From assembly GCA_965205015.1 (NCBI GenBank), contig OZ242029.1:4576001-4640000 (forward strand): DNA of 64,000 nt, given 5' to 3'. A model generated the notes under the pieces. It did not search any database. It worked only from the letters and a program-made list of their open reading frames with translations, and was not told the DNA's origin. This document shows, one piece after another, positions 7,870-63,921 of the stretch. The stretch comes from Candidatus Poribacteria bacterium. GTDB taxonomy: Bacteria > Poribacteria > WGA-4E > WGA-3G. Position 1 is the first letter of the stretch. Each line of letters starts with the position of its first letter. Position numbers and translations under genes: made by a program.

Positions 7870-9297
7870 ATGGGCACTACACATTATCCAATTAAACTCT
7901 TAATCCTCATTTCAATACTTATCGGCGCATTTTGTACCACAGTTTACAGTGCTGGATCCGATAAAGAAGCGGGGGTGGGCAACCTCGCCAGCGACGCAGT
8001 CTCGGTATCGCGGCGCACTGCAATTGTTACAGCAGTCGCGAACGCGAGTCCCGCAGTCGTCAATATCAGTGCTGTCCGGAGCGTTGAAACGCGTACCTCC
8101 TTTGACGAATGGTTCTGGGGCGAAATTCCGTATCCTCGTAGACGCGCCTTACGAGAGGTCGGTTCTGGCGTTATCGTTGATAAGAAGGGACACATCCTGA
8201 CCAACTATCACGTCATCAGAGATGCCGATAAAATTACCGTCGCCATCTCTGATGGACGAGAATTTGAGGCACAGATTGTCGGATATGACCTTTTCTCAGA
8301 CCTTGCCCTCTTAGAGATCGAGACGGACGGGGTATCGTTACCGGAAATTCAGTGGGGAGACTCAGATTCGCTTTTGATCGGTGAATGGGTCGTCGCCATT
8401 GGAAATCCGTTCGGTTTGTCATTAGGCGACGCACAACCCACGGTCACCGCTGGTATCGTGAGTGCGACACAACGGACGCTCACAGTCGAAGACCTGTATC
8501 ATGAAGACCTGATTCAAACGGATGCTTCCATTAATCCGGGCAACAGTGGCGGGGCATTGGTAAACACCCACGGTGAACTTATCGGTATAAACACCGTCAT
8601 CCGTTCAACGAGTGGTGGCTCACAAGGCGTCGGTTTTGCGATTCCAGTCAATAAAGCGAGGCGGGTCGTCCAACAGATTACTGAGTATGGCAGTGTTATT
8701 CCCCCCTACTTTGCCTTGGAGGTACAACCCGTAACGGAAGAATTGGCAGAAAAGTTGTCGATGCCGCGCAACACCGGGGTTTTGGTATCGGAAATAGGGA
8801 AACGCAGCCCTATTGCTAATGCGGGCATTAAACGGGGAGATGTCATTGTTAGCATTTCAGGACAACGGCTCAAAGACGAACAGGACTTTAACGCACGCAC
8901 GCGTCTGCTTCCACTGAATCAACCTGTCCAGTGCGAGTTCATTCGCCGGGGGAAAAGGCGGCAGACTGAATTCACATTGAAAACGCTACAATGGAATTAT
9001 ACACCCCGCGGATGGGGTATAGCGCTTGCCCAACCTGATAAGGCGATGTCCAAAAAATATAAGCAGCGCGGTGTTATTGTCACGCACGTTGAAAAAGACA
9101 GTGGATTGGCGAGCGCGCTGGAACGTGGGGATTTTATCTACCAAATCGACGATACTCCCATCCATTCGCTTGAAATTTTCAAAATTGTTGATGACCATAT
9201 CCGCACCCAAAATAGGGCGCAAGTCTATTTTGAGCGAGACGGCATCTATCGAGCCGTTCCCGTCAGTTTTTTTAATAGAAACAATCGGCGGAGATAA
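7870..9297 (+). CDS. HtrA/DegQ-like serine protease with PDZ domains
   Basis: Signal peptide; catalytic triad motifs TNYHV, DLALL, QTDASINPGNSGG; two PDZ-like regions. Confidence 0.95.
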   Translation: MGTTHYPIKLLILISILIGAFCTTVYSAGSDKEAGVGNLASDAVSVSRRTAIVTAVANASPAVVNISAVRSVETRTSFDEWFWGEIPYPRRRALREVGSGVIVDKKGHILTNYHVIRDADKITVAISDGREFEAQIVGYDLFSDLALLEIETDGVSLPEIQWGDSDSLLIGEWVVAIGNPFGLSLGDAQPTVTAGIVSATQRTLTVEDLYHEDLIQTDASINPGNSGGALVNTHGELIGINTVIRSTSGGSQGVGFAIPVNKARRVVQQITEYGSVIPPYFALEVQPVTEELAEKLSMPRNTGVLVSEIGKRSPIANAGIKRGDVIVSISGQRLKDEQDFNARTRLLPLNQPVQCEFIRRGKRRQTEFTLKTLQWNYTPRGWGIALAQPDKAMSKKYKQRGVIVTHVEKDSGLASALERGDFIYQIDDTPIHSLEIFKIVDDHIRTQNRAQVYFERDGIYRAVPVSFFNRNNRRR

Positions 9298-9411
9298 GTG
9301 TTTTTAAATCAGGAGCAAACGTCTGGTAATTATCCACGATAATGCACAAATCTAATGGAAACAGATGATCCGTCCAACGGATGGATCGTAGCAAGAGGCA
9401 ATAGGAAAAAA

Positions 9412-10128
9412 ATGAAATTGCAACTACCGACACTCATCGCCGTTTGTCTTGCGATCCTGCTCATTGGGGGTATTTACTTCTTCGGCAGAGACAAGGCAGA
9501 ATTGGGAATTGCCGTTAATTTGGAAAGTGAGGAATTCAAGCAACTCCGAACGCATGCCACTGATGCGTTCAACGCTGGGAAATATCAACAAGCCATTGAA
9601 CTTTACAGCACAGCGTTAAAGATGCGTCCTGAGAACGCTGAAATCTATAATGACCTTGGGACGGTCTACTACGAGCAAGGTCTCAAATACGCCGGACCGA
9701 GCTGGCCCTCGTGGGAGAAGGAGTTGAGAGAAGACTCCGTTGACGAGGCAGTCGCGGAACTCAAAGTCGCTGTTAGCAAAACGGGTTCTGGTGTCATTAC
9801 GTTCAAAACACGAGACGAAGCCGTCGCTGATGCGCTCGAACAAGAGGCAGGACACCTCGACGGAGAGGTATATAGACAGCGTTGGGAAAATGAAACAACG
9901 CTTAATGTTCTCATTGGACAGACAAAAATCTATCTGCTGCGCGCTCGCGACCATTACATCCGTGCTTTGGATCTGAAACCCACGCATAGTGTCGCTTATC
10001 GCAACCTCGGTTCATTTTATATGAAGGTAGGCAGAACCGATAAGGCACTTGATTATTATCAAGAAGCCTACAAATTAGATCCAAGGGATGCCGAGTTGGA
10101 AGAATACCTAAACCAGTTCAGAAAATAG
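9412..10128 (+). CDS. Membrane-anchored tetratricopeptide repeat protein
   Basis: N-terminal TM helix from ATG 9412 after AGGA; TPR motifs AEIYNDLG and AYRNLG..Y...G..DKA...Y..A..LDP. Confidence 0.85.
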   Translation: MKLQLPTLIAVCLAILLIGGIYFFGRDKAELGIAVNLESEEFKQLRTHATDAFNAGKYQQAIELYSTALKMRPENAEIYNDLGTVYYEQGLKYAGPSWPSWEKELREDSVDEAVAELKVAVSKTGSGVITFKTRDEAVADALEQEAGHLDGEVYRQRWENETTLNVLIGQTKIYLLRARDHYIRALDLKPTHSVAYRNLGSFYMKVGRTDKALDYYQEAYKLDPRDAELEEYLNQFRK

Positions 10129-10238: not shown

Positions 10239-13200
10239 ATGCATCACAAACGCTGTCCAAATTGTGGATTCTTGAACCCGCCGTTCAAATTCTGCGGTGA
10301 ATGTGGAACGTCCCTTGAAAGTCCCAGACGGTCCCGTCAAATTTCAGCAGTCGATGAACAAGCCTTACCGCATGGGGCAGAACGCCGCCAGTTAACCGTC
10401 CTTTTCTGCGATATTGTCGGCTCCACTGCATTCACCGAAAAACTGGATCCTGAAGAACTCCGCAATCTTTTAGAAGTCTACCGGACCTGTATCATGGAGG
10501 TGGTTTTAGCACAAAACGGACATATCGCGCGTTACTTTGGGGATGGTATCCTCGTTTATTTCGGTTACCCCATTGCCCACGAGGATGCAGCACATCGCGC
10601 CATCCGAGCCGGGTTAGGTATCGTTGCCGCTATTGAGACCCTGAACCCGTATCTACAGGCGACCTTCGGTGTGGAAATCAGCGTTCGACTGAGTATTGAT
10701 ACAGGACTTGTTGTCGTCTGGCATATATCAGCAGAAGCGTCTCCCGAGGCGATTGACATCGTCGGTAAAACGCCGAATATCGCCGCAAGGATGCAAGAGT
10801 TAGCAACACCGAACAGCATTGTCATTGGGGATACAACCCATCAATTGGTTGAAGGCTTTTTTAAAACCGCTGCACTCGGTGCTTTTCCGCTCCGCGGTAT
10901 CTCACAACCTGTGAATGTGTACGAAGTATCAGGTGAAATTCCAGCACAGAGTCGCTTGGATATTGCCAGTGAAAGTGGATTGACCCCTCTGATCGGGCGG
11001 GAACGCGAGGTTGAATCGCTCAAGCAAGGGTGGACACAGGTGCTCGCCTCTAAAGGGCAAGCATTGCTGATTGAGGGTGAAGCCGGCATCGGAAAGTCAA
11101 GATGTTTGCAAGTCATTCAGGAGTACATCAAAGATCACCCAGAAGCGGTGACCATGGAATGTAGGTGCTCACCGTATTACCAGAACAGTCCGCTTTATCC
11201 TATTCTTTCACTGTTCCAAGAGCACGTTGTGCAGTTTTCAAACACCGATACCGCGCAGACACGCCTTAACAAGCTTGAGAGTTTACTCCGCGACTACAGC
11301 ATCCCGACTGTCGGAGGTGATACAGCATCCCTACCAGATTCTGATCGTGAGGTGCCAGAACAGACGCCAGAGACACTCCCACTTCTCGCCGAATTATTGG
11401 AGATACCTTTTGAAATACAACAACAAACAGTAACCGGTGTAGCGACTCGCCCGTACGGTAGACCCATTGAACAGGACACATATCCATCAGGCTGGGGACG
11501 CAGACAACGCCGACAGCAGACTTTGGAAGTCCTCGTCCAAGTCCTGTTGAAGATGGCTGAACAAAAGCCGATACTTTTTATCGTTGAAGATCTTCACTGG
11601 ATTGACCCCTCCAGTATAGAATTTCTTACGCTCTTGATTACACGGATCGAAAATGCTCGGATTTTCGCAGTTTTGTCTTGTCGGACCGATACGCAACATT
11701 TTCAGCACAGTGCGCGGTCTTCTGAGGAAAACGGTCAGTTTCTACAGGATGAAATCTCCGATAGCGATATTGAGAGTTCTGTTCTTGACAGAGAAATGCT
11801 GGATCAACTTCTACACCCAGAATGGGCAAATGCGGTGACATTGGTGGCACTCACACCTCCGCAGGTCGAGGAGATGATTCAACACGTCGCAGGAGACACA
11901 GCACTCCCATCAAAGGCGTTGACCCGGATTATCGAAATGACTGAGGGGGTCCCTCTATTTGTTGAGGAACTCACCCAGATGATGCTTGAAAATGTATCGG
12001 GGTTACAAACCCCTCCCACATCTGACGTGTCCAATGAAACAGACCCACATTCTCAAACAATGGAGGTGCCTGTAACGCTACAGGATTTGCTGACAACGAG
12101 ATTAGACGAACTCGGTGCTGCGAAGGAGATCGTCCAACTCGGGGCAACGCTTGGAAGGGAATGGACAGCGGAGTTATTACACGAGATTGCTTCTGGACTT
12201 GAGTTGGGAAATCGTCTTTTCACTGATTTTGTTTCGTTGAAGAGTGAATTGAGCAAACTCGTAAACGCCTACATCCTCAATCAAAATCCAGTCGCTGACA
12301 ATCAACTCCGGTATACGTTCCGCCATCCGCTCCTGCGTGAAACAGCGTATCAATCTCTGCTCAGGAGTAAGCGCCAGCAGTACCATCAACAGATTGCAAA
12401 GGTGTTGCAAAACGATGGCGGTTTCCAACCGGAGTTGGTAGCACATCATTATACCGAAGCCGGTCTTCCAGAAGAAGCGGTTGACTATTGGCACCGTGCT
12501 GGACAACGCGCACTGGAGCGTTCTGCAAATGTGGAAGGTATTCGCCATATCACGCAAGGTCTCGCGGCACTTGAGGAACTCTCGGTAAACACCGGCACAC
12601 GCGGCGTGGCGTCTACCGCCCAACAAGAATTGGAACTGCAGACGATTCTTGGGAGTGCGCTGATTGCAACAAAAGGGTATGCCGCCCCGGAAGTCGAGGT
12701 CGCCTATACGCGAGCGAGAGTACTCTTAGAAACCCTTGAAGCGAGAGGCGAGGTTACCGCGCCCGTACAGGAACCGACCTTAGGCGAGGCGGGGGATACT
12801 TCGCTTGATCGCATAAAGGATCTCCGCTTTCCGATTCTGTTTGGATTATGGCTCTCGCATCTCGTGCGCGGCCGATTCCTCTCCGCCCGTGAATTCGGTG
12901 AACAGTGCTTTGTAATTGCCAAGCAAGTCGAAGATCCAGCTTTTGAGGTCGAGGCGCATCGAGCCCTCGGCTCAACGCTTTACTATTTAAGTGAATTCAA
13001 AAGTGCCCTCGCCCATCTTGAGGCTGGCATTGAAATCTATCAACCGCAGCTGCATCCGGTTCCAACGTTTCTTCACTTCGTAGCCGATCCTGGGATGACC
13101 TTACTCGCCTATTCTGCTCCACTTTTATGGTCCCTTGGCTATCCCGTGCAAGCCGAGGCTCGGCTTGCAGAAGCTGCAAGAATTGGAAAGGACAGAAGTC

Positions 13201-13919
13201 ATCCGTTCAGTGATGCTGTGTTGCTCTATTTTACAACTGTTCTTAATCAACATCGCGATGACGTTGAAAAGGTGGAGCGCGCTGCAACCGAGATGCTACA
13301 GATATGTCAAGAACATGGATTTTCCCTATGGGAAGCCGCCGCAACGGTCATGCAGGGCTGGGCACTTACAGAATTGAATCACCCGGAAAAAGGGATTCCG
13401 ATGATACGTAAGGGTATTGCCGCATGGGAAAAGACAAGGGCTGAATTGCAACTGCCACTTTTTCTTGCACTCCTCGCACAAGCCTATCAACGCGCAGGAC
13501 AGTATACATTAGCCTTACAAACACTTGATTCGGCATTGAGCGTCGTCACACGAACCGGCGAGCGTGCCTATGATGCGGAGCTCACCCGGCGGAAAGGCGA
13601 ACTCTGTCTCGCACTTGGTAAAACAACTGAAGCAGTTAGCGGAGGGGAATTCGGGGTTATAAACCCTTCCTACAACGCTGTTGAAAAGGCTGAAGCCTAT
13701 TTTCAGGAGGCATTAGCGATCGCGCGCCGCCAAGGCGCAAAATCTTGGGAACTCCGAGCCGCTCTCAGTCTGAGCGAATTATGGTGCACGCAAAACCGTT
13801 CTCGGGAGGCGCACAATCTGCTGAGACCGATATATCTATGGTTTTCGGAAGGTTTTGATACAAGAGACCTTCAACAGGCAAAACACCTGTTGGAGAAGCT
13901 GCAGGCTACCTCAAAGTAA
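10239..13919 (+). CDS. Zinc ribbon - class III adenylate/guanylate cyclase - STAND ATPase - TPR protein
   Basis: CPNC..FCGECG; AERRQLTVLFCDIVGST, FGDG, N.AAR; GEAGIGKS Walker A, EDLHW; C-terminal helical repeats ending WF.EGFDT.DL. Confidence 0.93.
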   Translation: MHHKRCPNCGFLNPPFKFCGECGTSLESPRRSRQISAVDEQALPHGAERRQLTVLFCDIVGSTAFTEKLDPEELRNLLEVYRTCIMEVVLAQNGHIARYFGDGILVYFGYPIAHEDAAHRAIRAGLGIVAAIETLNPYLQATFGVEISVRLSIDTGLVVVWHISAEASPEAIDIVGKTPNIAARMQELATPNSIVIGDTTHQLVEGFFKTAALGAFPLRGISQPVNVYEVSGEIPAQSRLDIASESGLTPLIGREREVESLKQGWTQVLASKGQALLIEGEAGIGKSRCLQVIQEYIKDHPEAVTMECRCSPYYQNSPLYPILSLFQEHVVQFSNTDTAQTRLNKLESLLRDYSIPTVGGDTASLPDSDREVPEQTPETLPLLAELLEIPFEIQQQTVTGVATRPYGRPIEQDTYPSGWGRRQRRQQTLEVLVQVLLKMAEQKPILFIVEDLHWIDPSSIEFLTLLITRIENARIFAVLSCRTDTQHFQHSARSSEENGQFLQDEISDSDIESSVLDREMLDQLLHPEWANAVTLVALTPPQVEEMIQHVAGDTALPSKALTRIIEMTEGVPLFVEELTQMMLENVSGLQTPPTSDVSNETDPHSQTMEVPVTLQDLLTTRLDELGAAKEIVQLGATLGREWTAELLHEIASGLELGNRLFTDFVSLKSELSKLVNAYILNQNPVADNQLRYTFRHPLLRETAYQSLLRSKRQQYHQQIAKVLQNDGGFQPELVAHHYTEAGLPEEAVDYWHRAGQRALERSANVEGIRHITQGLAALEELSVNTGTRGVASTAQQELELQTILGSALIATKGYAAPEVEVAYTRARVLLETLEARGEVTAPVQEPTLGEAGDTSLDRIKDLRFPILFGLWLSHLVRGRFLSAREFGEQCFVIAKQVEDPAFEVEAHRALGSTLYYLSEFKSALAHLEAGIEIYQPQLHPVPTFLHFVADPGMTLLAYSAPLLWSLGYPVQAEARLAEAARIGKDRSHPFSDAVLLYFTTVLNQHRDDVEKVERAATEMLQICQEHGFSLWEAAATVMQGWALTELNHPEKGIPMIRKGIAAWEKTRAELQLPLFLALLAQAYQRAGQYTLALQTLDSALSVVTRTGERAYDAELTRRKGELCLALGKTTEAVSGGEFGVINPSYNAVEKAEAYFQEALAIARRQGAKSWELRAALSLSELWCTQNRSREAHNLLRPIYLWFSEGFDTRDLQQAKHLLEKLQATSK

Positions 13920-14079: not shown

Positions 14080-14940
14080 ATGAGACTTGGTGTTGTTGGA
14101 CTCTGTGGGGACTTTCGTACCCTCACATCGGATGAGATCACAAAAATCAAAGCGTTGGAATTTACCGGTTTAAGTTTCCATTTCCCCAGCGCGGAGATTC
14201 CATCTGTACCACCAGATGCTGCCACCCGTTGTGTGCAAATGTTAAAAGCTGCGGAACTTGACCTTGTTCAATTCGGCATAACTTATGAGGAATGCCTTTT
14301 TCATCCCGATGCCGATATCCGAAAAGCTGGGATCGCCAGTGTCCAACGCGGCATACCGACGGCTGCCTCTCTCAACGCGCACCATTATCTATTTCGCGCA
14401 GGGAGTCTCAATCCCGATGGGGCTTGGACCTCCCATCGAGATAACCACCTTCCAGCATCGATGGAGCGTCTGATTGACACTTTGAAACCGATCGCAGAAC
14501 ATGCCGAACGGCACGAACTGACCCTTGTTATGGAGACACATGCCGTTTCAATTATGGATTCACCCGAAACGTGTCGGGAGGTGGTAGAGCGTGTCGGTTC
14601 CGAGAGGCTTCGTATCGTCATGGATTTCGTCAATCACTTTCAAACACTTCGGCAGGTCTATGAAAGCGAATCACGGCTTAACCACATTTTTGACGTCATG
14701 GGACCGATCGCACCGATGGCACATATCAAAGACATTAGCGTCCAGAACGGTTTAGTACTCCATCTCAATGAGGAAGTACCCGGTGAAGGTGAATTGGCAC
14801 TCGGTGTCGCATTAAAGCGTTTTGATGCCCTCTATCCAGATGGCTACGGATTGATAGAACATCTCCCTGCGGAGAAAATTCCGCTCGCGAACGCAAATGT
14901 TCGGCGAATTGCCGCCGAAAACGGCGTCGATATTTTTTAA
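14080..14940 (+). CDS. Sugar phosphate isomerase/epimerase (xylose isomerase-like TIM barrel)
   Basis: VMETH, MDFVNH, AHIKD, PGEG, LIEH metal-binding motifs. Confidence 0.88.
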   Translation: MRLGVVGLCGDFRTLTSDEITKIKALEFTGLSFHFPSAEIPSVPPDAATRCVQMLKAAELDLVQFGITYEECLFHPDADIRKAGIASVQRGIPTAASLNAHHYLFRAGSLNPDGAWTSHRDNHLPASMERLIDTLKPIAEHAERHELTLVMETHAVSIMDSPETCREVVERVGSERLRIVMDFVNHFQTLRQVYESESRLNHIFDVMGPIAPMAHIKDISVQNGLVLHLNEEVPGEGELALGVALKRFDALYPDGYGLIEHLPAEKIPLANANVRRIAAENGVDIF

Positions 14941-15027
14941 TGGTTGTCAGTCGTCAGTCGTCGGTTAAAAGGCTTTCCTCAACCCTATCTCCTGATCAAG
15001 GGGGATCAAGGGGTGAAATCTCTGTAG
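14941..15027 (+). repeat. Heptamer element arm plus G/C-rich palindromic repeat
   Basis: TGGTTGTCAGTCGTCAGTCGTCGGTTAAAAGG followed by CTCCTGATCAAGGGGGATCAAGGGG. Confidence 0.6.
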
Positions 15028-15042: not shown

Positions 15043-17571
15043 TTGATGATGAAAGGCTTTCTAAATACATTCATATTCCCCTCTTCACCCCGTAGGGGTG
15101 AAATCTCTATAGGGAGAATAGCATGCTTCATTCTTGTTTCGATCTTTTTCATACTTCTGCACCCAGCGTTCGGGCAAGAATCCAATCTGGTTGAGGAGGC
15201 CCAAAAACAGGCACGGAGTTGGTGGTCGAACTCTCAGGTTTACGTTGGCGTCATCCTTCTCGTCTTCATAATTAGTAGCGTTGGCTATATAATCAGGCTT
15301 TTCAAAAAGGACAAACTTCTTAAGAAACTCCTGAATAAGTACGTTGTTTTTCAGATGAAAGACGGCAGGCGTTACCGAGGCACCATGCGTCTGGAAATCA
15401 CAGGCATGGAGATTATCTCTGAGGAATCCCGGCAACGCGGACACGCCCCAAGTTATATTTTCACCAACGAAGAACGTGATGAGGGAATTGTCGCCTACAT
15501 CCGTTACCATGATTCAATGAATGAGCGTGAACTCAGAGAACGCGCGTGGGAACTTGAGCGCGTCTACCATCCGCCTGTCATCTACAAAATCGGGCGGAAA
15601 ATTCGGAATATGTTCATCGCTCTCAACGAGGCATTGAAAGAAGCCATTAGCATGGCTTGGAGCAGTTTCACAAGAAGCGCGAACAAGCGTTTAGAACGGT
15701 ACGCGGAAGTATATGAAGAGGGTGGCGGTAATCTGGAGCAAAGGCTCGGCAGATTGGAAGAAGAATCTACAGGCTACTTGGAGCAGGAGAGTTATGAACG
15801 TTTGATCGAACGGTTGATTGGAACACGGGTCAAAGTCCGAGTGCGTTTCGGTGAACATACCGCTGAGTACACGGCTATCCTCAAAGACTACAATAACAAA
15901 CATATTGCGCTCATGGATGTGAAGGACAAGGACAACAACGGCTACGCGGACGAGTGGGAATACGAACATGAATTTGAGAAGGATCTCGCAAAACTCAACC
16001 GCCGAGATGACCGCGGATTGCGGTGTCGAGCAGAGGGCAACGAGATCATCTTTGAAAACAATACACCCTATACCATCCAGCTCGGCCGCATTCGATTGAC
16101 AGAAGACTCACCGAAATGGGAAAAGGATTATGAATACAAATACCATATCGGTGCCTTCAGTGTTCAAAGACTTGAGGTCACTCCTGTCGTTAAGCATAAT
16201 GTCGAGCCGTTCGAGCGCGTCGCCATTCGAGACACGCGTGCCATAAACAATTACAAAAAAATTTGGTTCAAGTTTCGCTCTTTCCGAGATGCGGATATCG
16301 TATTCCCGCGTCGCTACTGCACAATTGTTGAAAGCGCGGAAAAATACCAGCCTGAACTTTTCAGTCTTGCCGGCTTGACAGATACTATTTTAGACATGCG
16401 TGATACAGAGAACATCGCTATTACCAACAAAGATGGCAATACTATCCACGGTATCAACGTTGTTCATGGGTATGTGACAAATATCAATGAGGAGCGTATT
16501 GATTTAAAGGCAATCGACGCGAGTTATAGCCGCAGATGGGATGTTGAAAGCGCGTTTCGCCGTTTTGATAATAAACTTCGCCATGGATTTCCTATCTACA
16601 AGCGGCTTCTCCCCATAAATCGCGTCCGGATTACAGCGCATGCTTCGCTCATTGAGCAGATACACAGTACCCCCATTCGGCACGCCGCGTTAGCACCGCT
16701 TATTTATCCACAACCCCGTAACCTCAACACGACGGAACAGCGCACACGTAGACGAAAACGGATGTGGAATCGAATTGTGAGGCGGATAAATGCTGCAATT
16801 TGGAAATCAGGAAACGGGATTTCCAGAACGCCTGATGTAAAACGTTCGGAAGTACCAATCGCGATGCCGTTTAAACTCATGGCACTGACTGGAAATACAT
16901 CCTCCGTCGAATTTCCGGTCCTCGAACGTTTTGAATACATTCAGGATCACCACATGATTTACAACGCGGTTCAAAATTTGCGAACCGATCGGTTAGCAAA
17001 GACTGATATTTTATGGATTGGGAACGGCGAGATTTACAAATCCGGCTATCGATTAAACATAGATACTGAACATCGAATCAAAAATTTCGTCAGTCAAGGC
17101 GGGGTCGTTATAGTTTCTGGACAAGATATCAAAGCCAGCGCCAAACAGCGCCGCGGTACAGGGTGGATTCCGGAACCTCTCACCGGCGTTGAATGTGAAG
17201 AGACTTATGAACTCTCTCCCACATCACAAGGGAAACGCTCCCGTATCTTCCAATATCCGAATCCACTGAATGGGCATCATGCCGATCCAGAGACGCAGGA
17301 TCAGCCCTTTATTCGACTGGATGATATGTGGTTGGATCCGCTGGGAAAATGGACATCTCTCGCCAAAATTAACACAGCCGCTACGGGACTTCCGAAGAAT
17401 GGATCTGAAAATGCCTCCGCGCTTTTACTCCTGCCGTTTCAGCAAGGGTTATACATCGTCACCAGTTTAAGGAATGAGACGGAAGCAGATGTCCAAATCA
17501 ACGATAAAATTATGGAAAACCTGCTCCATTTTTCCGTTAAATGGCTTGATCGGCAACGTCCGACTGTTTAG
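15043..17571 (+). CDS. Hypothetical membrane-anchored multidomain protein (two Sm/LSm-like segments; C-terminal GATase1-like/DUF4350-like domain)
   Basis: 842-aa ORF after GGAGG; signal/TM helices; C-terminal 'IKNFVSQGGVVIVSGQ'. Confidence 0.75.
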   Translation: MMMKGFLNTFIFPSSPRRGEISIGRIACFILVSIFFILLHPAFGQESNLVEEAQKQARSWWSNSQVYVGVILLVFIISSVGYIIRLFKKDKLLKKLLNKYVVFQMKDGRRYRGTMRLEITGMEIISEESRQRGHAPSYIFTNEERDEGIVAYIRYHDSMNERELRERAWELERVYHPPVIYKIGRKIRNMFIALNEALKEAISMAWSSFTRSANKRLERYAEVYEEGGGNLEQRLGRLEEESTGYLEQESYERLIERLIGTRVKVRVRFGEHTAEYTAILKDYNNKHIALMDVKDKDNNGYADEWEYEHEFEKDLAKLNRRDDRGLRCRAEGNEIIFENNTPYTIQLGRIRLTEDSPKWEKDYEYKYHIGAFSVQRLEVTPVVKHNVEPFERVAIRDTRAINNYKKIWFKFRSFRDADIVFPRRYCTIVESAEKYQPELFSLAGLTDTILDMRDTENIAITNKDGNTIHGINVVHGYVTNINEERIDLKAIDASYSRRWDVESAFRRFDNKLRHGFPIYKRLLPINRVRITAHASLIEQIHSTPIRHAALAPLIYPQPRNLNTTEQRTRRRKRMWNRIVRRINAAIWKSGNGISRTPDVKRSEVPIAMPFKLMALTGNTSSVEFPVLERFEYIQDHHMIYNAVQNLRTDRLAKTDILWIGNGEIYKSGYRLNIDTEHRIKNFVSQGGVVIVSGQDIKASAKQRRGTGWIPEPLTGVECEETYELSPTSQGKRSRIFQYPNPLNGHHADPETQDQPFIRLDDMWLDPLGKWTSLAKINTAATGLPKNGSENASALLLLPFQQGLYIVTSLRNETEADVQINDKIMENLLHFSVKWLDRQRPTV

Positions 17572-18734
17572 CCCATCAACACATCATTCAACTTCTCATC
17601 GCCTTCTGTAATAACCAACGCAACCGCTAATACGACTATCGGCAGGTTCCTGTCTTCTACAAAGCCCTCTAATTTCTGTTCGTCTTTTTCCGTTGTGACA
17701 ATCAGATCTGCTCCTGTTTTTTGGAAAGTCGTGTATATCTGCTGTTTGTCGATTTCCGTATAGATATGGTGGTCGGGAAATGCCAGGAGTTCTGCGCTTA
17801 CAACGGAGCATCTTATGAGGGTCGCCACAAACGCGTCCGGATCTCCAATTCCACAAACTGCGAGCACCCGTTTTCCTTTGAGTTCTTTTATATTAGAGTT
17901 ATCGGTTCTCGGTAGTCGGTTTTCAGTTAAAAGGTTTTCGCTTAACAAATCCCTCTTGTAACTGACGACTGACGACTGACAACTGACCGCCAATGGATAG
18001 AGGTGTGTTGGTTGGTGAATGCTTTCCAAGATTAGCGCGTTCGGTGCTGACGATTTCACCAATTTTTTGATATGCGCGGATATGTTGGGTGTATCTGTAT
18101 GCGTTAGTAAGATGAGGTCTGCGCGTCGTAGCGCGGAGGGGGGCTCACGTAAAGTTCCCGCCGGTAGCAAGTGCTGAGGACTCCCGAAGGGGTGTGTCGC
18201 CGGAATAGTGAGAATATCGACGTCGCGGGCAAGCTGCCGATGCTGGAATCCATCATCTAAGAGCAAGACATCCACCTTGAAACGTTCAAGTGCTATCTGA
18301 CCTGCCAGATAACGGCATTTCCCGACAACAATCGGAACGCCGCTGAGGTGTTTCGCCATCATATATGCTTCATCCCCGCTTTCCATAGCGGAAGCATACA
18401 CTTTTTCGCCGTCTGAGACAATTGTCACTTTTTCACGAACGCGACGTTTATACCCGCGCGACAGAATAGCGACGCGCCTCCCCTCTCTTTGAAGATGTTT
18501 CGCAATAGCGATAACAGCAGGTGTTTTACCCGTCCCGCCAACAACAATGTTCCCGACACTGATGACTCGGCACGGCAACCTACGTGCTTTAAGCACCCCA
18601 CGATTATATAAGATATTTCGGAGTTGGACGCTTGCCCTGTAGAGCCAACTCAATGGAATTAATAAAAAACGTAGGGGGGTAGCGAGGATTCTCTGCTGTA
18701 GCGAACCAAGGTCGTGGGTGTGTGTCAATCTCAT
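17568..18734 (-). CDS. lpxK: Tetraacyldisaccharide 4'-kinase
   Basis: VISVGNIVVGGTGKTP, LSRGY, GDE, DDGFQH, LLPAG.LRE, FPDHH, TTEKD. Confidence 0.97.
   Translation of the reverse strand: MRLTHTHDLGSLQQRILATPLRFLLIPLSWLYRASVQLRNILYNRGVLKARRLPCRVISVGNIVVGGTGKTPAVIAIAKHLQREGRRVAILSRGYKRRVREKVTIVSDGEKVYASAMESGDEAYMMAKHLSGVPIVVGKCRYLAGQIALERFKVDVLLLDDGFQHRQLARDVDILTIPATHPFGSPQHLLPAGTLREPPSALRRADLILLTHTDTPNISAHIKKLVKSSAPNALILESIHQPTHLYPLAVSCQSSVVSYKRDLLSENLLTENRLPRTDNSNIKELKGKRVLAVCGIGDPDAFVATLIRCSVVSAELLAFPDHHIYTEIDKQQIYTTFQKTGADLIVTTEKDEQKLEGFVEDRNLPIVVLAVALVITEGDEKLNDVLMG
17898..17990 (-). repeat. 93-bp heptamer-flanked element inserted in-frame in lpxK
   Basis: Minus strand GCGGTCAGTTGTCAGTCGTCAGTCGTCAGTTACAAGAGGGATTTGTTAAGCGAAAACC... 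aligns with intergenic 2044-2135. Confidence 0.85.
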
Positions 18735-20145: not shown

Positions 20146-20212
20146 CAGCAAATATTGTAACTCCCACAAGAATCCACTGACTGCCGACGGCTGAGGGAAA
20201 CCGACAGCCACT

Positions 20213-21333: not shown

Positions 21334-21445
21334 ATTATTGTAAGGCACACCCAGAGCCGTTCAACTCTTCTATAGGAGCGAGCTGCGCTCCCGATTTTAC
21401 TGACAGCTGACCGCCGACGGCTGACAGCCATTCCAAAGAAATAAA

Positions 21446-29255: not shown

Positions 29256-29318
29256 AAAAAACGGTCGCGATCGGGAGATCGCTCCTATAGGAAGAATCTC
29301 CAGCAAATAGAAAACACA

Positions 29319-32716: not shown

Positions 32717-34516
32717 CTATTCCTTGACACTTCCTAAAGTAATCCCCTGCACAAATTCACGCTGCATCGCTAAAAATAGAATAACGATTGGCATGAGCGA
32801 TAGCAACGTTCCTGCCATCAACATGCCGTAATCTTGCCGATAGGTACCCACAAGATTCGCTAAGCCGATCGGTAGTGTATATTTCACCTCATCCCGTAAA
32901 ATGATGAGGGGCCAGAGATACCCGTTCCATGAACCCAAGAACGAATAGATCGTCAACGCCCCAAGCGCAGGTTTGATAATAGGTAACACAATCCGGTAAT
33001 AGATACCGAACTCGGAACAGCCATCAATCCGTGCTGCATCGAGGAGTTCAGACGGAATCGTGACAATGAATTGACGCATCAGAAATACGCCGAACGCACC
33101 GACCGAAAATGGGATGATAATCGCTTTGTAACTATTGAGCCAGCCGATATCATACATCAACCCAAACAACGGAACGAGCAGGACCTGGAAAGGCACCATC
33201 ATGGAAGCGAGGAGGATACCGAACAGAATCTTTTGACCGCGGAATTGATACTTGGCAAACGCATATCCTCCGAGTGAGCAGAAAAACAGCGTGAGTAGCG
33301 TTGACGCGGTCGCAATGAAAACACTGTTGACAAAATACCGATTATACGGCACCGTCTTCCATAAATTCCGATAGTTTGACGTGAACTTATCCCACACAAT
33401 TGAGAGATACGCCGGTTGATGAATCGTTAATTGCAGGAACAATTGACTCCCATTTCCTGTTTCCGCTGTGGATTGGGCAGGCACGGGACCTGCTGATTGG
33501 GCAGGCACGGGACCCACAGGTTCGCCAGGTACAAGACCTGTAGATTGGGCAGGCACAAGACCTGCCCCTACTTTCTGCATGGTGATGTGTGATGATTCTA
33601 ACTCACCCGGGATGCCGTGCAGGCGCCAGACGGAATCTGTCCACAATGCACTGTCTAAAACGAAAGAACGCGTCGGTTGATATGTAACGCCCTCGTTCGG
33701 ACTGCTGGCATTCATTCCAGACTGCGGTACAGACACGGTTAAAGAGAGACGGTGATACGAGGCATCTCCACGCACGGGGAGAATGATGCGCCGAATCCGC
33801 TCAATTGGAATAGCGGAAGAAACCCTTGACGTTATACGCGCAGTGTTACTGCCTTGGAAATTGTAGGATAGACTCACATCCGTCTGGAGATCATCTGATG
33901 TGCGTATACGCGTGCCCGTTTCTACTTCCCAGTTCACACCTTCAATTGGTGTGCGATTGAAGTCGAGGTCTTCTATCTGGAGCGTTCCAACCGCAACTTC
34001 ACGATACACTGATCCCCAGATCGTATCAACTGCCTCAGGAATAACAGCGTCTCGCACCGCCGCGGTAACCGAATCCATTGTGCCGTTCCAGACTTCGTCT
34101 GGTAGCCCTGCGACCAGTTGCTGCCATAAACCCTGTATTATTTCAGTTTGTAATTCTTCGGATGGGACATGGTTAGAAAGCTTCGCACTTGCCGCGATAT
34201 GCGCTTGTGCCTCAGCCCCAATGATTTGTGTGAGTTGGGGCTGCAGGGTTTTCCACTCCGTTTCATCCACAGCCCTCGGTTTTTCAATCTCAGGATAGGC
34301 ATCTTTGACAATATATGGCGATGCTGCGACACGCGGAGGCAGATTCGGGAACCACTGAATAGGGACAGCGAAAATTTCGTTGGCAGTTTTAAATGAGGAG
34401 GTCAATAGCCACAGCATCGGTATCATGGTACAAAACGCTGCCCCTACTAAAAGGAGATAACCGATCCCTCTGAAAATTTTTATTTTAACGCGTTGGTTTC
34501 TTTTGCTGTGATTCAT
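32717..34516 (-). CDS. Carbohydrate ABC permease (MalG-like) with large extracytoplasmic insertion
   Basis: N-terminal TM + SSFKT; C-terminal YF.NS, ELLDAARIDG (EAA), WN.YLWP. Confidence 0.9.
   Translation of the reverse strand: MNHSKRNQRVKIKIFRGIGYLLLVGAAFCTMIPMLWLLTSSFKTANEIFAVPIQWFPNLPPRVAASPYIVKDAYPEIEKPRAVDETEWKTLQPQLTQIIGAEAQAHIAASAKLSNHVPSEELQTEIIQGLWQQLVAGLPDEVWNGTMDSVTAAVRDAVIPEAVDTIWGSVYREVAVGTLQIEDLDFNRTPIEGVNWEVETGTRIRTSDDLQTDVSLSYNFQGSNTARITSRVSSAIPIERIRRIILPVRGDASYHRLSLTVSVPQSGMNASSPNEGVTYQPTRSFVLDSALWTDSVWRLHGIPGELESSHITMQKVGAGLVPAQSTGLVPGEPVGPVPAQSAGPVPAQSTAETGNGSQLFLQLTIHQPAYLSIVWDKFTSNYRNLWKTVPYNRYFVNSVFIATASTLLTLFFCSLGGYAFAKYQFRGQKILFGILLASMMVPFQVLLVPLFGLMYDIGWLNSYKAIIIPFSVGAFGVFLMRQFIVTIPSELLDAARIDGCSEFGIYYRIVLPIIKPALGALTIYSFLGSWNGYLWPLIILRDEVKYTLPIGLANLVGTYRQDYGMLMAGTLLSLMPIVILFLAMQREFVQGITLGSVKE
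33471..33571. repeat. REP-derived tandem repeat in-frame in the ABC permease
   Basis: GGGCAGGCACAAGACCTGCCCCTAC (33547-33571) plus 24-bp period GATTGGGCAGGCACGGGACC copies. Confidence 0.8.
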
Positions 34517-36892: not shown

Positions 36893-37001
36893 GTTTTTTC
36901 CCCCGTATGTTTCTGGCAGATTTCAGAATTAATTGAACATTCTCAAAGGCTCCCTCATATTCATCAGCGTCCTTCGGATAGGCACAAACTAACAGTTTAT
37001 G

Positions 37002-37613
37002 CTACAAATTATCTTCCTGTAGGGCGCGTTCATAATCTTCGCGATAATCTATATCGCGGAGGACTCGATCGGTATCGACTGTAACGTAATGAATATCATC
37101 GCCATACCTTTTGAACAGCGTCCGCACGCCGCCGCTCTCCGCTCCCAAGGCAAGAATATCGTCGGCATATCGCCGATGGAAGATGACTGGATGCCCCCGT
37201 TTATAATTATAACTCGGTAGGGCAATCCCCGCGTCCGTTCGGACGTAAGCATCAATGACCTCATCGATTAACACAGAGGTAATAAACGGCTGGTCGACCA
37301 GCATCAGTGCGAACGCGTCGCTCCCTTGCAATGCCCGAATCCCCGCCTGTGCGGAGGTCAGCATCCCCTCGTGATAGCCAGAGTTAAAAACGATTTTGAC
37401 GGGACGTTCCGACAGTTGCTCTTGAATCTGTTCTGCGCAATGTCCGACAATAACGATAACCTCATCAAACTTGGATTCAAGCATACTGTCCACCACGGTT
37501 TCAACAATAGTGCTCTTCCCGAAAGGGAGGAGTTGCTTCGGTTCACCCATCCGAGTGGAGAGTCCTGCGGCGAGGAGAATTCCGGAAATGAAGGTGGGAG
37601 TCGGATACGTCAT
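37002..37613 (-). CDS. Molybdenum cofactor cytidylyltransferase-like nucleotidyltransferase (MocA family)
   Basis: LAAG.STRMG.PKQLL, GMLTS, DQP, GHPV.F, DID..EDY. Confidence 0.88.
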   Translation of the reverse strand: MTYPTPTFISGILLAAGLSTRMGEPKQLLPFGKSTIVETVVDSMLESKFDEVIVIVGHCAEQIQEQLSERPVKIVFNSGYHEGMLTSAQAGIRALQGSDAFALMLVDQPFITSVLIDEVIDAYVRTDAGIALPSYNYKRGHPVIFHRRYADDILALGAESGGVRTLFKRYGDDIHYVTVDTDRVLRDIDYREDYERALQEDNL

Positions 37614-40511: not shown

Positions 40512-40536
40512 GGGCACCCACAAGGGATGCCCCTAC
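40512..40536. repeat. GTAG-REP-like hairpin between convergent genes
   Basis: GGGCACCCACAAGGGATGCCCCTAC. Confidence 0.7.
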
Positions 40537-40568: not shown

Positions 40569-41831
40569 CTACAAAAAAGTATTGCTTTCAAATAGAACAT
40601 TTGGATTGGTTTTGCCCCGGACGAATACGGCTTTCCCATCGGTTTGAAAACGGTTGTTATAGAAACGGATGTTGCGAATGCCTTCGCTCACACAATCAAC
40701 CGCGGCAGGGTTTCCATTAGCAGCGCGCGTTGTGGAGATTGTGTTAGCGTAAAAAGTTGTGTCCGTGATACCGCCGCTTGCGCCGGTAGACCAGAGGTGA
40801 ATACCGCCATAACGATTCTTCCGACCATCGTTTACACTCACATTGTGGCGAAGGACGTTCCCATAAAACGCACGGGCATCGCTGAATTGCGCCAGCAAAT
40901 ATCCGGGTCCATCGTTATCGTGGGAATAGTTATGCTGAACCGTCGAATTCCGCACACCACCGTCCAGATCGAACCCGCCCCCATCTTTACTGCTACCTGT
41001 CCGGTTGTGATGAGATTCATTGAACTGAATGACAACGCGGTTGGCGTCCCATGCCCAGATTCCAACGGGACCACCGCCTTCGTAATCGTTTAAACCACCA
41101 TTTTCGTAAGCACGGCACCGCTCAATTACCGCTCCATCTACCTGTGCGAGGACAATGCCGTTCCCTGAGTGACTCCCCTTGCCAGGGATGCCCGCGTTCT
41201 TATAGACGCTGCAATTGCCGAGATAAAAGTCGGCATGTGCATATCCCTCGCGCTCCGGATTCCACACACCGATACAACTGATACCTGCGTCACCGTTGTC
41301 ATGGCTGGTGGTGTATGTAATGTTGACATCACGGAAACCGCTCCAACTCCCATCTGGGGGTTCTGCCACGAAGCGGATCCCAGAATGCTTGAAATCGCTG
41401 ACATCGACGCGATGTATCCGAATATCTCGCAGCTTAATCCCACCGGGAAGTGTATTCATGAACAGGATGCCGGAATTGGTATTCTCAAACGCGCCAGCAC
41501 CGACAAAGTTGAGTTTGCTTAGGTGAACGCCTCCCATATTCTTGGCTATAAAACCGGTACCCTCTCCTGCGTCGATGGTGGCTCTACCGGATCCGTAGGA
41601 GCTTATTGTTACGGCGCACGGCGTGTGTCTACTGCTTTTTGTTACGGCACACGGCGTGTGCCTACTACTTTGCAGACGGAGACTTCCGGGGAAGGTTTGT
41701 TTGGCTTGAAATAGGACAGCATCACCCGGTAACACCTGAGCGGCATTTACGCGTGCAATACTTTGCCACGGGCATGTTTCGGATGTGCCGAGGTTTGAAT
41801 CGTCACCGAACAAACTCACGTAGTAATTCAT
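40569..41831 (-). CDS. Right-handed parallel beta-helix (pectin lyase-like) protein
   Basis: YYVS..GDD.N.G.S..PW.SI.RVN; repeated N.SHDN.G; DGGGFDLD. Confidence 0.85.
   Translation of the reverse strand: MNYYVSLFGDDSNLGTSETCPWQSIARVNAAQVLPGDAVLFQAKQTFPGSLRLQSSRHTPCAVTKSSRHTPCAVTISSYGSGRATIDAGEGTGFIAKNMGGVHLSKLNFVGAGAFENTNSGILFMNTLPGGIKLRDIRIHRVDVSDFKHSGIRFVAEPPDGSWSGFRDVNITYTTSHDNGDAGISCIGVWNPEREGYAHADFYLGNCSVYKNAGIPGKGSHSGNGIVLAQVDGAVIERCRAYENGGLNDYEGGGPVGIWAWDANRVVIQFNESHHNRTGSSKDGGGFDLDGGVRNSTVQHNYSHDNDGPGYLLAQFSDARAFYGNVLRHNVSVNDGRKNRYGGIHLWSTGASGGITDTTFYANTISTTRAANGNPAAVDCVSEGIRNIRFYNNRFQTDGKAVFVRGKTNPNVLFESNTFL
41608..41670. repeat. Two tandem 33-bp REP-like units in-frame (SSRHTPCAVT x2)
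   Basis: GTTACGGC[GA]CACGGCGTGTG[TC]CTACT repeated at 41608 and 41641. Confidence 0.85.
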
Positions 41832-43975: not shown

Positions 43976-44257
43976 ACTATGCTCCTATTGTAACCCAAGT
44001 TGCTACGGACAAGATTTCGGGTGTGCGAACCCCGTTTTTCAGTGAAAAGCGTTCATGCGCCGCGAAGGTCTTGTCGCGTAAACTTTTCGTTTGCGCATCC
44101 ACGGACACAAACTGGAAAGATTGTGCTACGAGTGGCACAATCTCACAGTTTATGCACTCAGGCACAGGAGACCCATGGTTCCCTATGCTACAATTTCAAT
44201 CAGAAATGGTATTATTACTGGATTCAAACCGATTTAGAAAATGTCTGATGTTTACGC

Positions 44258-46424: not shown

Positions 46425-46480
46425 CGTATATCTCCTTTGAAAGTTCATAATCAACGCTGTATCGGGACACTCCCGATGCA

Positions 46481-46532: not shown

Positions 46533-46779
46533 GCGAAAATACACCGACCCGACAGCGAACTGCCGAGACAGGTCTTGTGAAGTCGTTATGAAGCAAATTA
46601 CTTATCGTTTGTGGTGTAGAAGGGGGGGTAACCTGCTAACAGGTCGACAGAACGCCTCAGAATGCGTATATCTTCACACATACGCAGAGACTTTTTCAAT
46701 TGCGATAGCATACTGCACTTCGTCATTATCGTTCCCAGGTAAAATGTCCGATGCGGACGCAGATTAAGCAACTTGAATT

Positions 46780-48919: not shown

Positions 48920-49003
48920 CATAGGAAACCGCAGGAAAGAGGCGCAATAAATTGTGCTACTACGAACAGGGTTTCGTTAAGGTATCCGTCAGCAGTCATA
49001 ACA
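48897..49003 (+). repeat. 25-bp duplication of the pstC 3' end flanking a REP-like hairpin
   Basis: AAGGTATCCGTCAAGAGTCATAACA (48897-48921) vs AAGGTATCCGTCAGCAGTCATAACA (48979-49003); spacer contains GGCGCAATAAATTGTGCTACTAC. Confidence 0.8.
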
Positions 49004-51697: not shown

Positions 51698-51845
51698 AAG
51701 TCAGCAGTCGTCAATCCGTATGAAGTTGTTTTTCAACGCAAAGCGATCATTTTTGCGAAAAACTTGGTGTGTTCCGTAACATTTTCGGCAGGCAGATGCA
51801 CAGGCTAACGGTCTCCTATGCTCCAAACTGACAACTCATAAAAAT

Positions 51846-53586: not shown

Positions 53587-54357
53587 ATGCAAACCGAACA
53601 AAGAGACCCCATCTTGAGCATCCATAATCTAAATGTATGGTATGGCGAGAATCAGATTCTGAACTCCGTCTCATTTGAGGTACAACCGAGACAGGTAACC
53701 GCTCTCATTGGTCCTGCTAATTGTGGTAAAAGCACACTCGTACGGTGCTTCAATCGTTTAAATGACTTTACGCCGAATTTCAGGTTCACTGGCGAAATAC
53801 TTTTTAAGGGCAGTGACATGTATGCGGACAAGACAGATGTCACCGCGCTTCGAAAAAAGATTGGCATGGTGTTCCGAAAACCTGAACCCTTCCGGTGTTC
53901 CATCTACGAAAATGTGGCATACGGGGCTCGGATCTCGGGCATCAATCAAACTTCACAGTTGGAGACCATTGTTCAGAAAAGCCTCCAAAAATCAGGGCTC
54001 TGGAATGAAGTTGAGCCTATTTTGCACGGGAATCCAGAACAACTCTCTATAGGACAGCAACAACTTCTCTGTATCGCACGTGCTTTAGCGGTTGAACCAG
54101 AAATCTTAATACTTGATGAGCCGTGTGGCGAATTAGACCCGATCGAAACCGTTAAAATCGAGACCCTCGTGCGGAATCTCATAAACGATTGCACGCTTAT
54201 TTTCGTTACCAATAAAAGAAGGCAGGCGGCTCGCATCTCAGATGTCGCGGGACTCCTCTACCGCGGCGAATTAATCGAATTCGGAACGACAGAGAAACTC
54301 TTTACAAATCCACAAGATACCAGAACAGAGCAATATGTGACAGGAAGATTAGGCTGA
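53587..54357 (+). CDS. pstB: Divergent PstB-like ATP-binding protein (copy 3)
   Basis: GPANCGKS, LSIGQQQ, DEPCGELDP, TEQYVTGRLG; Q-loop and H-loop altered. Confidence 0.8.
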   Translation: MQTEQRDPILSIHNLNVWYGENQILNSVSFEVQPRQVTALIGPANCGKSTLVRCFNRLNDFTPNFRFTGEILFKGSDMYADKTDVTALRKKIGMVFRKPEPFRCSIYENVAYGARISGINQTSQLETIVQKSLQKSGLWNEVEPILHGNPEQLSIGQQQLLCIARALAVEPEILILDEPCGELDPIETVKIETLVRNLINDCTLIFVTNKRRQAARISDVAGLLYRGELIEFGTTEKLFTNPQDTRTEQYVTGRLG

Positions 54358-54474
54358 TTTTTAAATTAAACAGAACTTAAGCAGCATCCTTTGCTGGCGA
54401 GGTTTGAAACCTCGCCAGCGGCGTGTGGGCAGAGCAATATGTGACAGGAAGATTAGGCTGATTTTTAAATTAAA
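54326..54474 (+). repeat. Exact 45-bp duplication of the pstB 3' end flanking a perfect palindrome
   Basis: CAGAGCAATATGTGACAGGAAGATTAGGCTGATTTTTAAATTAAA at 54326-54370 and 54430-54474; GCTGGCGAGGTT-TGA-AACCTCGCCAGC at 54393-54419. Confidence 0.9.
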
Positions 54475-55119: not shown

Positions 55120-55202
55120 GAATAGCGGTCAGCAGCAGTCTGTCGGGAATCGGAGTTCCCTCCTACAGGGGATCCCTTGTGGTGAGCGCCCTGCCTACAG
55201 TC

Positions 55203-62173: not shown

Positions 62174-62286
62174 TGTATTAAAATCTCCCGTGAGAAAATC
62201 ATGCGCACCCTTCAAATCGTGCGTGCCTGCAAGCCGAAGAAAGCCCTATGTGCTGCCCTAAAACCGTCCCTGCCACGTGTGGTGTG

Positions 62287-63921
62287 TCAAGGAGTGTTTG
62301 AAGGGATTGCTTGTATGACTGGAATAACGTAACTCCGAATGTCCACATCTCCTACGGTTTCCATTTCCACGCGAGGTTCCGGTTTTTGTCGGTGATCAAA
62401 CACGACATAGTATCCTTCCGTCACGCCTTCCGACTTGAGATACGCCGATAGTTGCTGCTTTCCCATCTGGTAGCGGACATCCCCGCGCCAAATCTTTGTC
62501 TCAACGATATATTTCCGTCGATTGTGAGTGATACAGAGATCCATTTTGCCCGCCCCTGTTGGCACTTCAAAGGACATGACCCCGCCGACTGCCTTGACGA
62601 ATGAATCCAGATAGGTGAGGAGAAGATGCCTGCCGACATACTCTTGTGGCGTTTCTGGTACCTGGAGTATTTTGAAACCTACGCGTGTGATGAAATCCCG
62701 GAAGTTATCCAGAAGCCGCGCGATCTCAAGATGCCCTTCGGGTGTGAGATAATTTTGAAATTCGCCGGTCGTGTTCTCTGCAAAGTAGTCGCGCTCCAAT
62801 CCATTCACTGTTGGTGTGAACGCCTGCATAATGTGATGGAGATAGATAGGGTTAACAATCTCACATCTTCCATCAGTTCCATTTTGAATGACCCCATAAG
62901 TTGTGAGTTCACTGATAATATCGTCGTGTGGATTGAAGCGAACGCCTTCTTCATACGTCATGATTCGCATCAGGAGGCTTTCAAACTTCTGATTTTTGCG
63001 GACATTGATGATGAGATGATCGATGTTGGTGTTGCCCTTCTCAAGCAGCTGCCGATGTGCTGCTGTGAAGTGATCCAGCGTAATCCTCTCGGTTTTGGGA
63101 ACGTTCAGTTCTTCGGTAAGGATTTGTGCTGCGCGGTTGACGAGGAAAGGTTGTCCGTTCGTCTGTTTATGTAACATCTCAATGACTTCTGGTGCGAAGG
63201 ATTGTCCAACTTCCGCCGTATACTGCCCCAGGAGTTCACGGACCTGTTCGAGGGTAAAATTTGGCACGACGAACTCATCTTGGATATTGAAGGGTGAAAT
63301 AGAATCGTCATAGTTGAGTTGCCTGATATTCTTCACACCGACGATGCCAACGCTGTGCGGGCTGCGCGGCTTCCCGGCGACGTAAATGTGGCGAAGCGAG
63401 TGGAGAAACCCTTGCAGCACATCACGCGGAATGCCATCAAACTCGTCAATGAAAAGGACGACTCGCTGCGTGTGGGCAGGCGTTTGTGCTGCGTGCCGTC
63501 CATCACGCGACAGAAATTTTGCGAACTGCCGAAAGAATCTGCGCATAGCGCGGTGATCGGTAATCGGGTTGCGACTCTCCAAAAAGTCTGCTAATGGCAC
63601 AGAAGGCATCTCGCGGCGTTGCTCAAAAACGTTCTCTATCTGTTCGAGGATATCTTCATAGAGTCCTCTGTAAAAATCAGCGGCAGTTTCGTCCGCAGCC
63701 TCTTCAAAATTGAGTTGGATCGGAAAATAGTGTTGTTCCTGGGTTGTGAGCGTGTCCAAGGCGCGTTGAAAGAACGTTGTTTTTCCGGTCTGTCGAGGCG
63801 CGAAGATGACGATGTATTTTCCATTTTTGATGCGTTCGATGAAATCAGCAGTTTCTTTAGAGCGTGTGACAATATAGTTATCGTGAGGGTTGACAGGTCC
63901 CTGTGTTCCGAAGGTTCTCAC
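62287..63921 (-). CDS. AAA-like domain (AAA_35) protein with C-terminal PD-(D/E)XK nuclease fold
   Basis: APRQTGKT, IDEFD, SPFNI, GQP.LVN; G.MDL...YIVETK. Confidence 0.88.
   Translation of the reverse strand: MRTFGTQGPVNPHDNYIVTRSKETADFIERIKNGKYIVIFAPRQTGKTTFFQRALDTLTTQEQHYFPIQLNFEEAADETAADFYRGLYEDILEQIENVFEQRREMPSVPLADFLESRNPITDHRAMRRFFRQFAKFLSRDGRHAAQTPAHTQRVVLFIDEFDGIPRDVLQGFLHSLRHIYVAGKPRSPHSVGIVGVKNIRQLNYDDSISPFNIQDEFVVPNFTLEQVRELLGQYTAEVGQSFAPEVIEMLHKQTNGQPFLVNRAAQILTEELNVPKTERITLDHFTAAHRQLLEKGNTNIDHLIINVRKNQKFESLLMRIMTYEEGVRFNPHDDIISELTTYGVIQNGTDGRCEIVNPIYLHHIMQAFTPTVNGLERDYFAENTTGEFQNYLTPEGHLEIARLLDNFRDFITRVGFKILQVPETPQEYVGRHLLLTYLDSFVKAVGGVMSFEVPTGAGKMDLCITHNRRKYIVETKIWRGDVRYQMGKQQLSAYLKSEGVTEGYYVVFDHRQKPEPRVEMETVGDVDIRSYVIPVIQAIPSNTP

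Follow-up and report, generated by a model that had tools for sequence, protein, structure and literature searches.

The window analysed here is a 64-kb stretch of DNA taken as belonging to Candidatus Poribacteria, a sponge-dwelling group, from the relatives of its LarA-like protein: with this protein as the query, 80 loci of 74–95% identity were recovered, 77 of them titled Poribacteria and three "uncultured bacterium". Alongside genes such as those for HtrA, LpxB, an ABC permease and a beta-helix protein, it contains repetitive extragenic palindromes (REPs), hairpins of 22–33 bp with a 5' GT[AG]G tag that in some copies reads ATAG or has been lost (Table 1). A first-pass annotation regarded these hairpins as GTAG-type REPs, mobilised by REP-associated tyrosine transposases (RAYTs), which in this lineage invade genes in frame and could diversify protein loops. 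The six intergenic hairpins that it named are all present, lie between open reading frames (ORFs) and are all REPs. The GTAG label suits most of its hairpins, but not 21372 and 29265, which carry ATAG, or the tag-less 54393.

A scan for tagged hairpins yielded 23 REP classes with at least three independent sites each. Profiles of these classes, built partly from the window's own loci and applied at a threshold of 20, gave 22 matches in the window, an excess over chance in that eight triplet-shuffled copies averaged 0.0 per 64 kb. Four genome-wide pattern searches, in five genomes each, returned 0–41 strand matches per genome, and the reversed control none in any genome. The landing events were analysed in a partly overlapping sample of 4.2 Mb made up of orthologous loci of five further genes, syntenic blocks and transposase loci; L numbers denote the loci compared and G numbers the genomes compared.

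Table 1. REPs and REP-derived features of the window.
Coordinates	Strand	Feature	Evidence
5417..5442	-	Intergenic REP, same class as 55141-55166	Profile match; class flanks RAYTs L490, L493, L496
7969..7992	+	Decayed 54393-type REP, N-terminal part of HtrA (7870-9297), ~+15 nt	Orthologue alignment
11994..12019	-	In-frame REP, ORF 10239-13919, antisense, read SGLQTPPT, net +9 nt	2/11 distinct alleles; class flanks RAYTs L483, L485-L487
12747..12768	-	Partly decayed in-frame REP, ORF 10239-13919, RGEVTAPV, net ~+24 nt	1/16 distinct alleles; score 21; z -1.3
13648..13673	-	In-frame REP, ORF 10239-13919, FGVINPSY, net +18 nt	2/22 distinct alleles and one longer decayed-looking allele
21372..21397	+	Intergenic REP, ATAG tag	Profile match; class flanks RAYTs L481, L482, L484, L488, L489, L491, L492
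23469..23495	+	Perfect 27-bp double-tagged REP in LarA-like gene (23052-24341), read VGAGLPSPY	Fold z -6.8
29263..29288	-	Intergenic REP, ATAG tag	Profile score 21
33471..33571	-	REP array in ABC permease (32717-34516): tagged copy, then three tag-less; net +75 nt	Orthologue alignment
36980..37005	-	REP with tag serving as TAG stop codon of ORF 37002-37613	Profile match
40512..40536	-	Intergenic GTAG REP	Fold z -2.6; under profile threshold
41608..41671	-	REP dimer in beta-helix protein (40569-41831), SSRHTPCAV read twice	Orthologue alignment
44073..44191	-	Intergenic multi-class REP cluster	Profile matches
48935..48960	-	Intergenic GTAG REP, absent from the first-pass annotation	Profile match
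51799..51824	-	Intergenic REP, tag altered, absent from the first-pass annotation	Profile match
54393..54419	.	Intergenic perfect 27-bp palindrome without tag	Fold z -7.1; flanked by identical 45-bp direct repeats
55141..55166	-	Intergenic GTAG REP	Profile match

Four of the six coding cases proposed earlier, those in the LarA-like, permease, beta-helix and (decayed) HtrA genes, are REP-derived and missing from most orthologues. Three further in-frame REPs, overlooked at first, lie in an adenylate cyclase-AAA-TPR gene (10239-13919). Several REP classes do enter coding sequence, and empty orthologous sites exist; gain at coding sites is lineage-specific and located in length-variable loops. In the LarA-like gene the REP replaces a 15-nt V-x-x-x-Y segment with a net gain of 12 nt. 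The palindrome is no assembly artefact because a contig of another study retains it ungapped; contigs of two related runs are 12 letters shorter there. A metagenome scan gave three loci only, no close one among them, and a single RNA run contained 6% of the words, assembled contigs being no gauge of transcription. In an AlphaFold model used for loop position only (23 sequences, mean pLDDT 74), this REP falls within a coil bounded by helix 137-140 and strand 150-156, and PDB 4NAR aligns at the position with a 5-residue gap.

The permease array occurs in 2/31 orthologue rows, the other row, a relative, having gained 51 nt; its class has 0–41 matches per genome. The beta-helix REP is found in seven of 26 rows, as a dimer in five and singly in two; Y1 genes flanked by this class occur in L121 and L503. 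At the HtrA site, four of 31 rows carry a 54393-type REP, two (L196, L198) one of another class, and 25 none; the copy in the window is decayed and has no fold (z -0.02), and it is better kept in L189-L191. After landing, a REP may thus be followed by tandem growth (permease, beta-helix) or by decay (HtrA), and some REP-bearing loops hold unrelated short repeats in other rows. A second kind of repeat, with 7-nt tandem units, lies at 2039-2079, 14937-14977, 17899-17994 and 42365-42422, both intergenically and within ORF 41842-42492; related units fill REP loops in L132, L133 and L374. In LpxB (18835-20211), an in-frame stretch at about 19465-19515 with an 11-bp inverted repeat falls outside the known REP classes; the same site carries a REP in five relatives, and two related runs are 33 nt shorter there.

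The remaining two proposed cases do not stand. The TlpA insert at 30150-30200 is rejected as a REP: it is a 48-nt insert without a tag or a profile match (z -0.86) that is shared by all six orthologues, a distribution which the first-pass annotation itself had named as speaking against its idea. The AAA_35 candidate at 63468-63508 is unsupported: it has no profile match and z -1.2, and 4/5 close orthologues carry an equally long, divergent insert. Paralogues of the AAA_35 family (window 62287-63921) were present in 30/30 genomes, 1–21 in each, with E below 1e-150.

The LarA site has been filled repeatedly. It holds a REP in nine of 81 orthologue rows, and all 72 empty alleles are exactly 15 nt long. 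Each of these begins with a Val codon and ends with a Tyr codon, tag-like on each strand: the left end reads GTAG in 26, GTGG in 22 and GTTG in 13, and the right end is an exact tag in 27. The filled alleles are of four types, namely class A (+12 nt, four rows), class B (+18 nt, one row) and hybrids in both arrangements (+15 nt, three rows and one), in which arms of two classes are joined at a shared core. All four replace the same middle bases. On a tree built without the site and 60 nt each side, a single clade of filled rows is rejected (p-AU 4e-40), and at least seven changes are needed. The B arm is common in genomes with a B-arm allele (17 matches in G012, 8 in G013); G001, with an A allele, has 0. 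The LarA-like gene has a second REP site near its C-terminus, where another class adds 33 to 45 nt in frame in two separate lineages (L025, L041, L044, L046, L048). The LarA-like match is unusually long in L012 (1864 nt), and L057 has 1333 extra nt after the gene.

Among the other coding sites, HtrA and LpxB each have one that is occupied by different classes, and in LpxK the sites of different classes lie close together. Target loss of at least 5 nt is seen in 23 of 27 coding allele rows, one row being uninterpretable, and net changes of -12, -9 and -3 occur among the rows that lose target bases. To call these copies inserts is therefore imprecise, since most replace target bases. GTAG-like tetramers (at most one mismatch) already stand in most clean empties at seven of 20 tag ends, against a shifted-position background of 4.6% (P 2e-5). 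The count was initially 9/20; two doubtful ends (the left end of site 683, and site 80) were removed because the empties there may be decayed or other-class REPs, and non-coding "empty" sites were kept out of the test because many are REPs of these two kinds. With the closest empty alone the match is 5/20.

The frame bias, a check suggested by the first-pass annotation, is absolute in the sample. Among 705 elements, 232 have an orthologous site free of profile match. Coding status was set from the empty orthologues, so that frameshifting alleles would have counted; elements scoring below 24 were excluded, as were mixed-status sites, and the L293 row, which is not in an ORF, was dropped from the coding count. 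A non-zero net length change was a multiple of three in 26/26 coding alleles at 22 sites (25/25 minus one false site), compared with 38/113 non-coding alleles (P ~1e-10), alleles at one site not being independent.

REPs are nevertheless strongly depleted from genes, and an invasion of coding DNA in the sense of an excess is not what is seen. Blocks totalling 1.6 Mb, picked in 11 complete genomes near window-syntenic loci and not randomly, had a density of about 119 elements per Mb over all classes; 22/190 elements were coding, compared with at least 75% coding DNA. In samples drawn by pattern, 6/20, 3/27 and 0/28 elements were coding (9/75 in total, the 6 and the 3 each including a borderline case that was assigned manually), and 38 of the 75 were near a stop codon. 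By rough extrapolation, a 5.5-Mb genome would hold about 650 REPs, and about 75 of its proteins would bear them. No protein class is preferred among the 20 hosts scanned, which include LpxB, LpxK, an aminotransferase, an oxidoreductase, a sigma-54 activator, a glycosidase and a kinase.

The mobilisation of REPs by RAYTs agrees with what related genomes contain. Single-class REP arrays surround their own Y1/RAYT genes for about ten REP groups among the part of the RAYT neighbourhoods that was tallied, and Y1 HUH genes flanked by one REP class include those of the beta-helix, adenylate cyclase and LarA types. In terms of the window, the classes with an adjoining RAYT are those of 5417/55141, 21372, 11994/13648, 36980 and 41608, together with variants of the LarA class. 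PF01797 matched in 24/26 genomes, with IS200/IS605 TnpA as top matches, and NF047646 was above its cut-off in 27/38; some REP-flanked Y1 proteins score below that cut-off. The highest-scoring NF047646 group (L474-L480) has at most one profile match nearby, over the 23 classes. In place of tagged REPs, L117, which covers the L478 gene, contains a pair of palindromes with ATAG/CTAC ends. Three RAYT-like genes (L518, L519, L522) carry 3–7 copies of their own REP inside, in frame, with up to seven in L522. The RAYT-like gene of L508 likewise carries its own in-frame REP, and copy number varies among L508, L518, L519 and L522.

The features of GTAG REP/RAYT systems are thus present: a tagged hairpin of 20–40 bp, multiple copies above chance, and a mostly extragenic position (168/190 elements in the blocks and 66/75 in the pattern samples). 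The system is probably a class-rich but ordinary Poribacteria REP/RAYT system, in which target DNA is patched with a cleaved REP fragment and in-frame survivors remain in tolerant loops. TnpA-REP is known to cleave single-stranded REP DNA between C and T (C/T) under a GTAG guide and to perform strand transfer (PMC8266576, PMC3333891), and the cutting and rejoining of single-stranded REP DNA has been described for three other systems (PMC8266576). In the Poribacteria set, no fixed C/T motif was seen beside the tag over 486 independent copies, 90% of which have a pyrimidine at position -2. By analogy with the other systems, a single-stranded REP fragment cut by a RAYT would be patched into single-stranded target DNA. 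Patching would usually swap out 5–45 target bases, frequently at places that already look like the end of a REP. Landings that shift the frame or break the fold would be purged, so that the copies left would be in frame, nearly neutral and confined to loops that tolerate them. Whichever class is abundant in a given lineage might then return to the same small set of sites. The coding REPs read as neutral survival in tolerant loops, not as demonstrated diversification, because REPs stay depleted from genes.

A narrower version of this idea is put forward only tentatively, namely that RAYTs of the subclass 2.4 type overwrite short tracts with tag-like ends, a sequence-guided patching that would strike one set of codons repeatedly, in independent lineages and through different classes. 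Features of subclass 2.4 are seen in the double-foot REP at 23469-23495 and in the in-frame REPs within tnpA, between HUH and Y, in L518, L519 and L522. The Poribacteria proteins are provisionally assigned to the TnpA-Y1 subclass 2.4 REPtrons (Quentin et al. 2018, PMC6006769) by shared features, not by a tree.

Several observations weigh against the patching model. The RAYT type that adjoins LarA-class REPs occurred in just one of five complete genomes searched, no RAYT was found beside the permease REP class in related genomes, and the 64-kb window has no RAYT gene. At the LarA site, L001 and L015 share their nearest local flank although the genes are far apart, which suggests that at least one LarA allele was transferred by recombination. 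Of the coding rows, 3/27 are clean insertions, two of them with a target duplication (3 and 29 nt); the 29-nt duplication goes with the REP in LpxK of L032. Thirteen of the 20 tag ends are unmatched. The flanks of the empty orthologues are just 57–94% identical and the loops hypervariable, so that base loss may be later or unrelated; for this reason, the replacement of target bases at coding sites other than LarA is suggestive. Part of the replacement and tag-match signal could stem from divergence and from selection acting on neighbouring residues.

Plain insertion, at random or C/T sites, is a serious rival, though an unlikely one. Selection for rebuilt flanking residues, together with later deletions, would then imitate both replacement and tag match. 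It fits the clean insertions and the varying loop length among empties, and the LarA tag bases coincide with Val and Tyr codons that are nearly fixed in the 72 empties. On the other hand, the LarA empties are all of one length while four filled types replace the same middle, the tag match holds without LarA (5/18, P 1e-3), and the two single-copy beta-helix alleles measure +3 and -12 against their closest empties.

Spread independent of RAYTs, by short-tract homologous recombination among co-occurring Poribacteria or by gene conversion or template switching of arms, with few true landings, is improbable as a general explanation, and recombination explains some of the allele sharing. The flank common to L001 and L015, the hybrid alleles and the lack of a cognate RAYT in four of the five genomes searched speak for it. 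Against it, the flanks of L025, L011 and the window have their closest counterparts in empty alleles, for the most part members of the same clade; filled–filled flank similarity at LarA is ordinary (82/300 random sets were as low); and both HtrA and LpxB have a site that is shared by different classes. An adaptive role, in which REP/RAYT would be kept partly for host-beneficial remodelling of loops, has little support and is very improbable: the reuse of sites (LpxB and LpxK included), the three copies within one signalling protein and the more frequent coding position of GTAGGGG-type classes (12/27 vs 10/163), for which the number of open frames per class does not account, favour it, but the depletion from genes, the decay of old copies such as that in HtrA, the unrelated short repeats in the same loops and the variety of hosts do not, and the useful loop diversification first proposed is not borne out.

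In-frame REPs are not peculiar to this lineage either, as intragenic GTAG REPs were already reported in PMC3733652 and PMC6006769. Di Nocera et al. (2013, PMC3733652) described them in Opitutus terrae, Thauera, Xanthomonas and others. The two sets have much in common: single, dimeric or clustered in-frame REPs in known proteins, tags serving as TAG stops, a mostly intergenic position and, in that work, a proposal of neutral loop insertion. The text of PMC3733652 used here neither places filled and empty alleles on a tree nor describes replacement footprints; it makes a single remark on a shared site (Xanthomonas recB) and does not name Poribacteria. Its bias towards DNA-repair genes was not seen in the 20 Poribacteria hosts scanned. 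In-frame copies inside tnpA are described in PMC6006769; for REPs in unrelated genes, the relevant section of that paper only cites other work, and it does not compare empty with filled sites. A search of the openly accessible literature, supplements aside, found no paper on Poribacteria REPs or RAYTs or on replacement footprints. In-frame GTAG REPs, stop-codon tags and the neutral-loop reading are thus already known; what is new is an unusually class-rich Poribacteria case with alleles that are informative about landing.

Other palindromic elements differ more. Rickettsia palindromic elements resemble the Poribacteria REPs as palindromes in frame in unrelated proteins, and they have been proposed as a source of protein novelty (PMC10969869, PMC3733652). 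They are about 150 bp long or CGTC-tagged, have no known transposase and are nearly half coding according to the parts of these sources used here, in contrast to the 22–33 bp, GTAG-tagged, RAYT-linked and about 12% coding REPs of Poribacteria; the unit size, tag and RAYT link set the two apart. Miniature inverted-repeat transposable elements were rejected because a regular target-site duplication is missing, a duplication occurring in 2/27 rows only. The TnpA-REP systems of E. coli, Stenotrophomonas and Marinomonas share the GTAG guide, the hairpin and the HUH-Y1 enzyme, and their REPs are described as intergenic, spreading as pairs known as bacterial interspersed mosaic elements (BIMEs) or REPINs (PMC3333891, PMC8266576).

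The same two sources state that the in vivo route of REP spread is unresolved, in part because intergenic flanks align poorly. Coding copies lie in alignable flanks, so that filled and empty alleles reveal the effect of landing on the target. The LarA site is a defined 15-nt target with four outcomes and can be tested in vitro. If tag-guided overwriting occurs, it would be a reaction undescribed in the literature found and would explain the hot spots; Poribacteria genes would then preserve a large natural record of in vivo REP spread (about 75 proteins per genome) and would repeatedly supply novel loop peptides, among others in LpxB and LpxK. For annotation, the peptides VGAGLPSPY, RGWVTQPL and SGLQTPPT in Poribacteria proteins are to be taken as repeat-derived and not as functional motifs.

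Some further features of the window may be noted. The palindrome at 54393 is bracketed by identical 45-bp direct repeats (54326-54370 and 54430-54474), which take in the final codons of the ABC ATPase gene that lies upstream; the pair is a local duplication tied to the REP. A weak match to an ATAG-type class at 15079-15104 lies near the start of ORF 15043-17571 and may be upstream of its true start. ORF 44258-45004, REP-flanked and secreted-looking, has no family match and was rejected as a RAYT, no HUH motif being seen. It is more conserved than its neighbours, with 91–95% DNA identity in many genomes at non-syntenic places, and was probably exchanged recently. It shares a similar C-terminal W-G-x-(I/L)-K motif with ORF 45204-46544. 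A PemK/MazF-type toxin gene and its upstream partner gene at 34561-35294 form an ordinary toxin-antitoxin pair.

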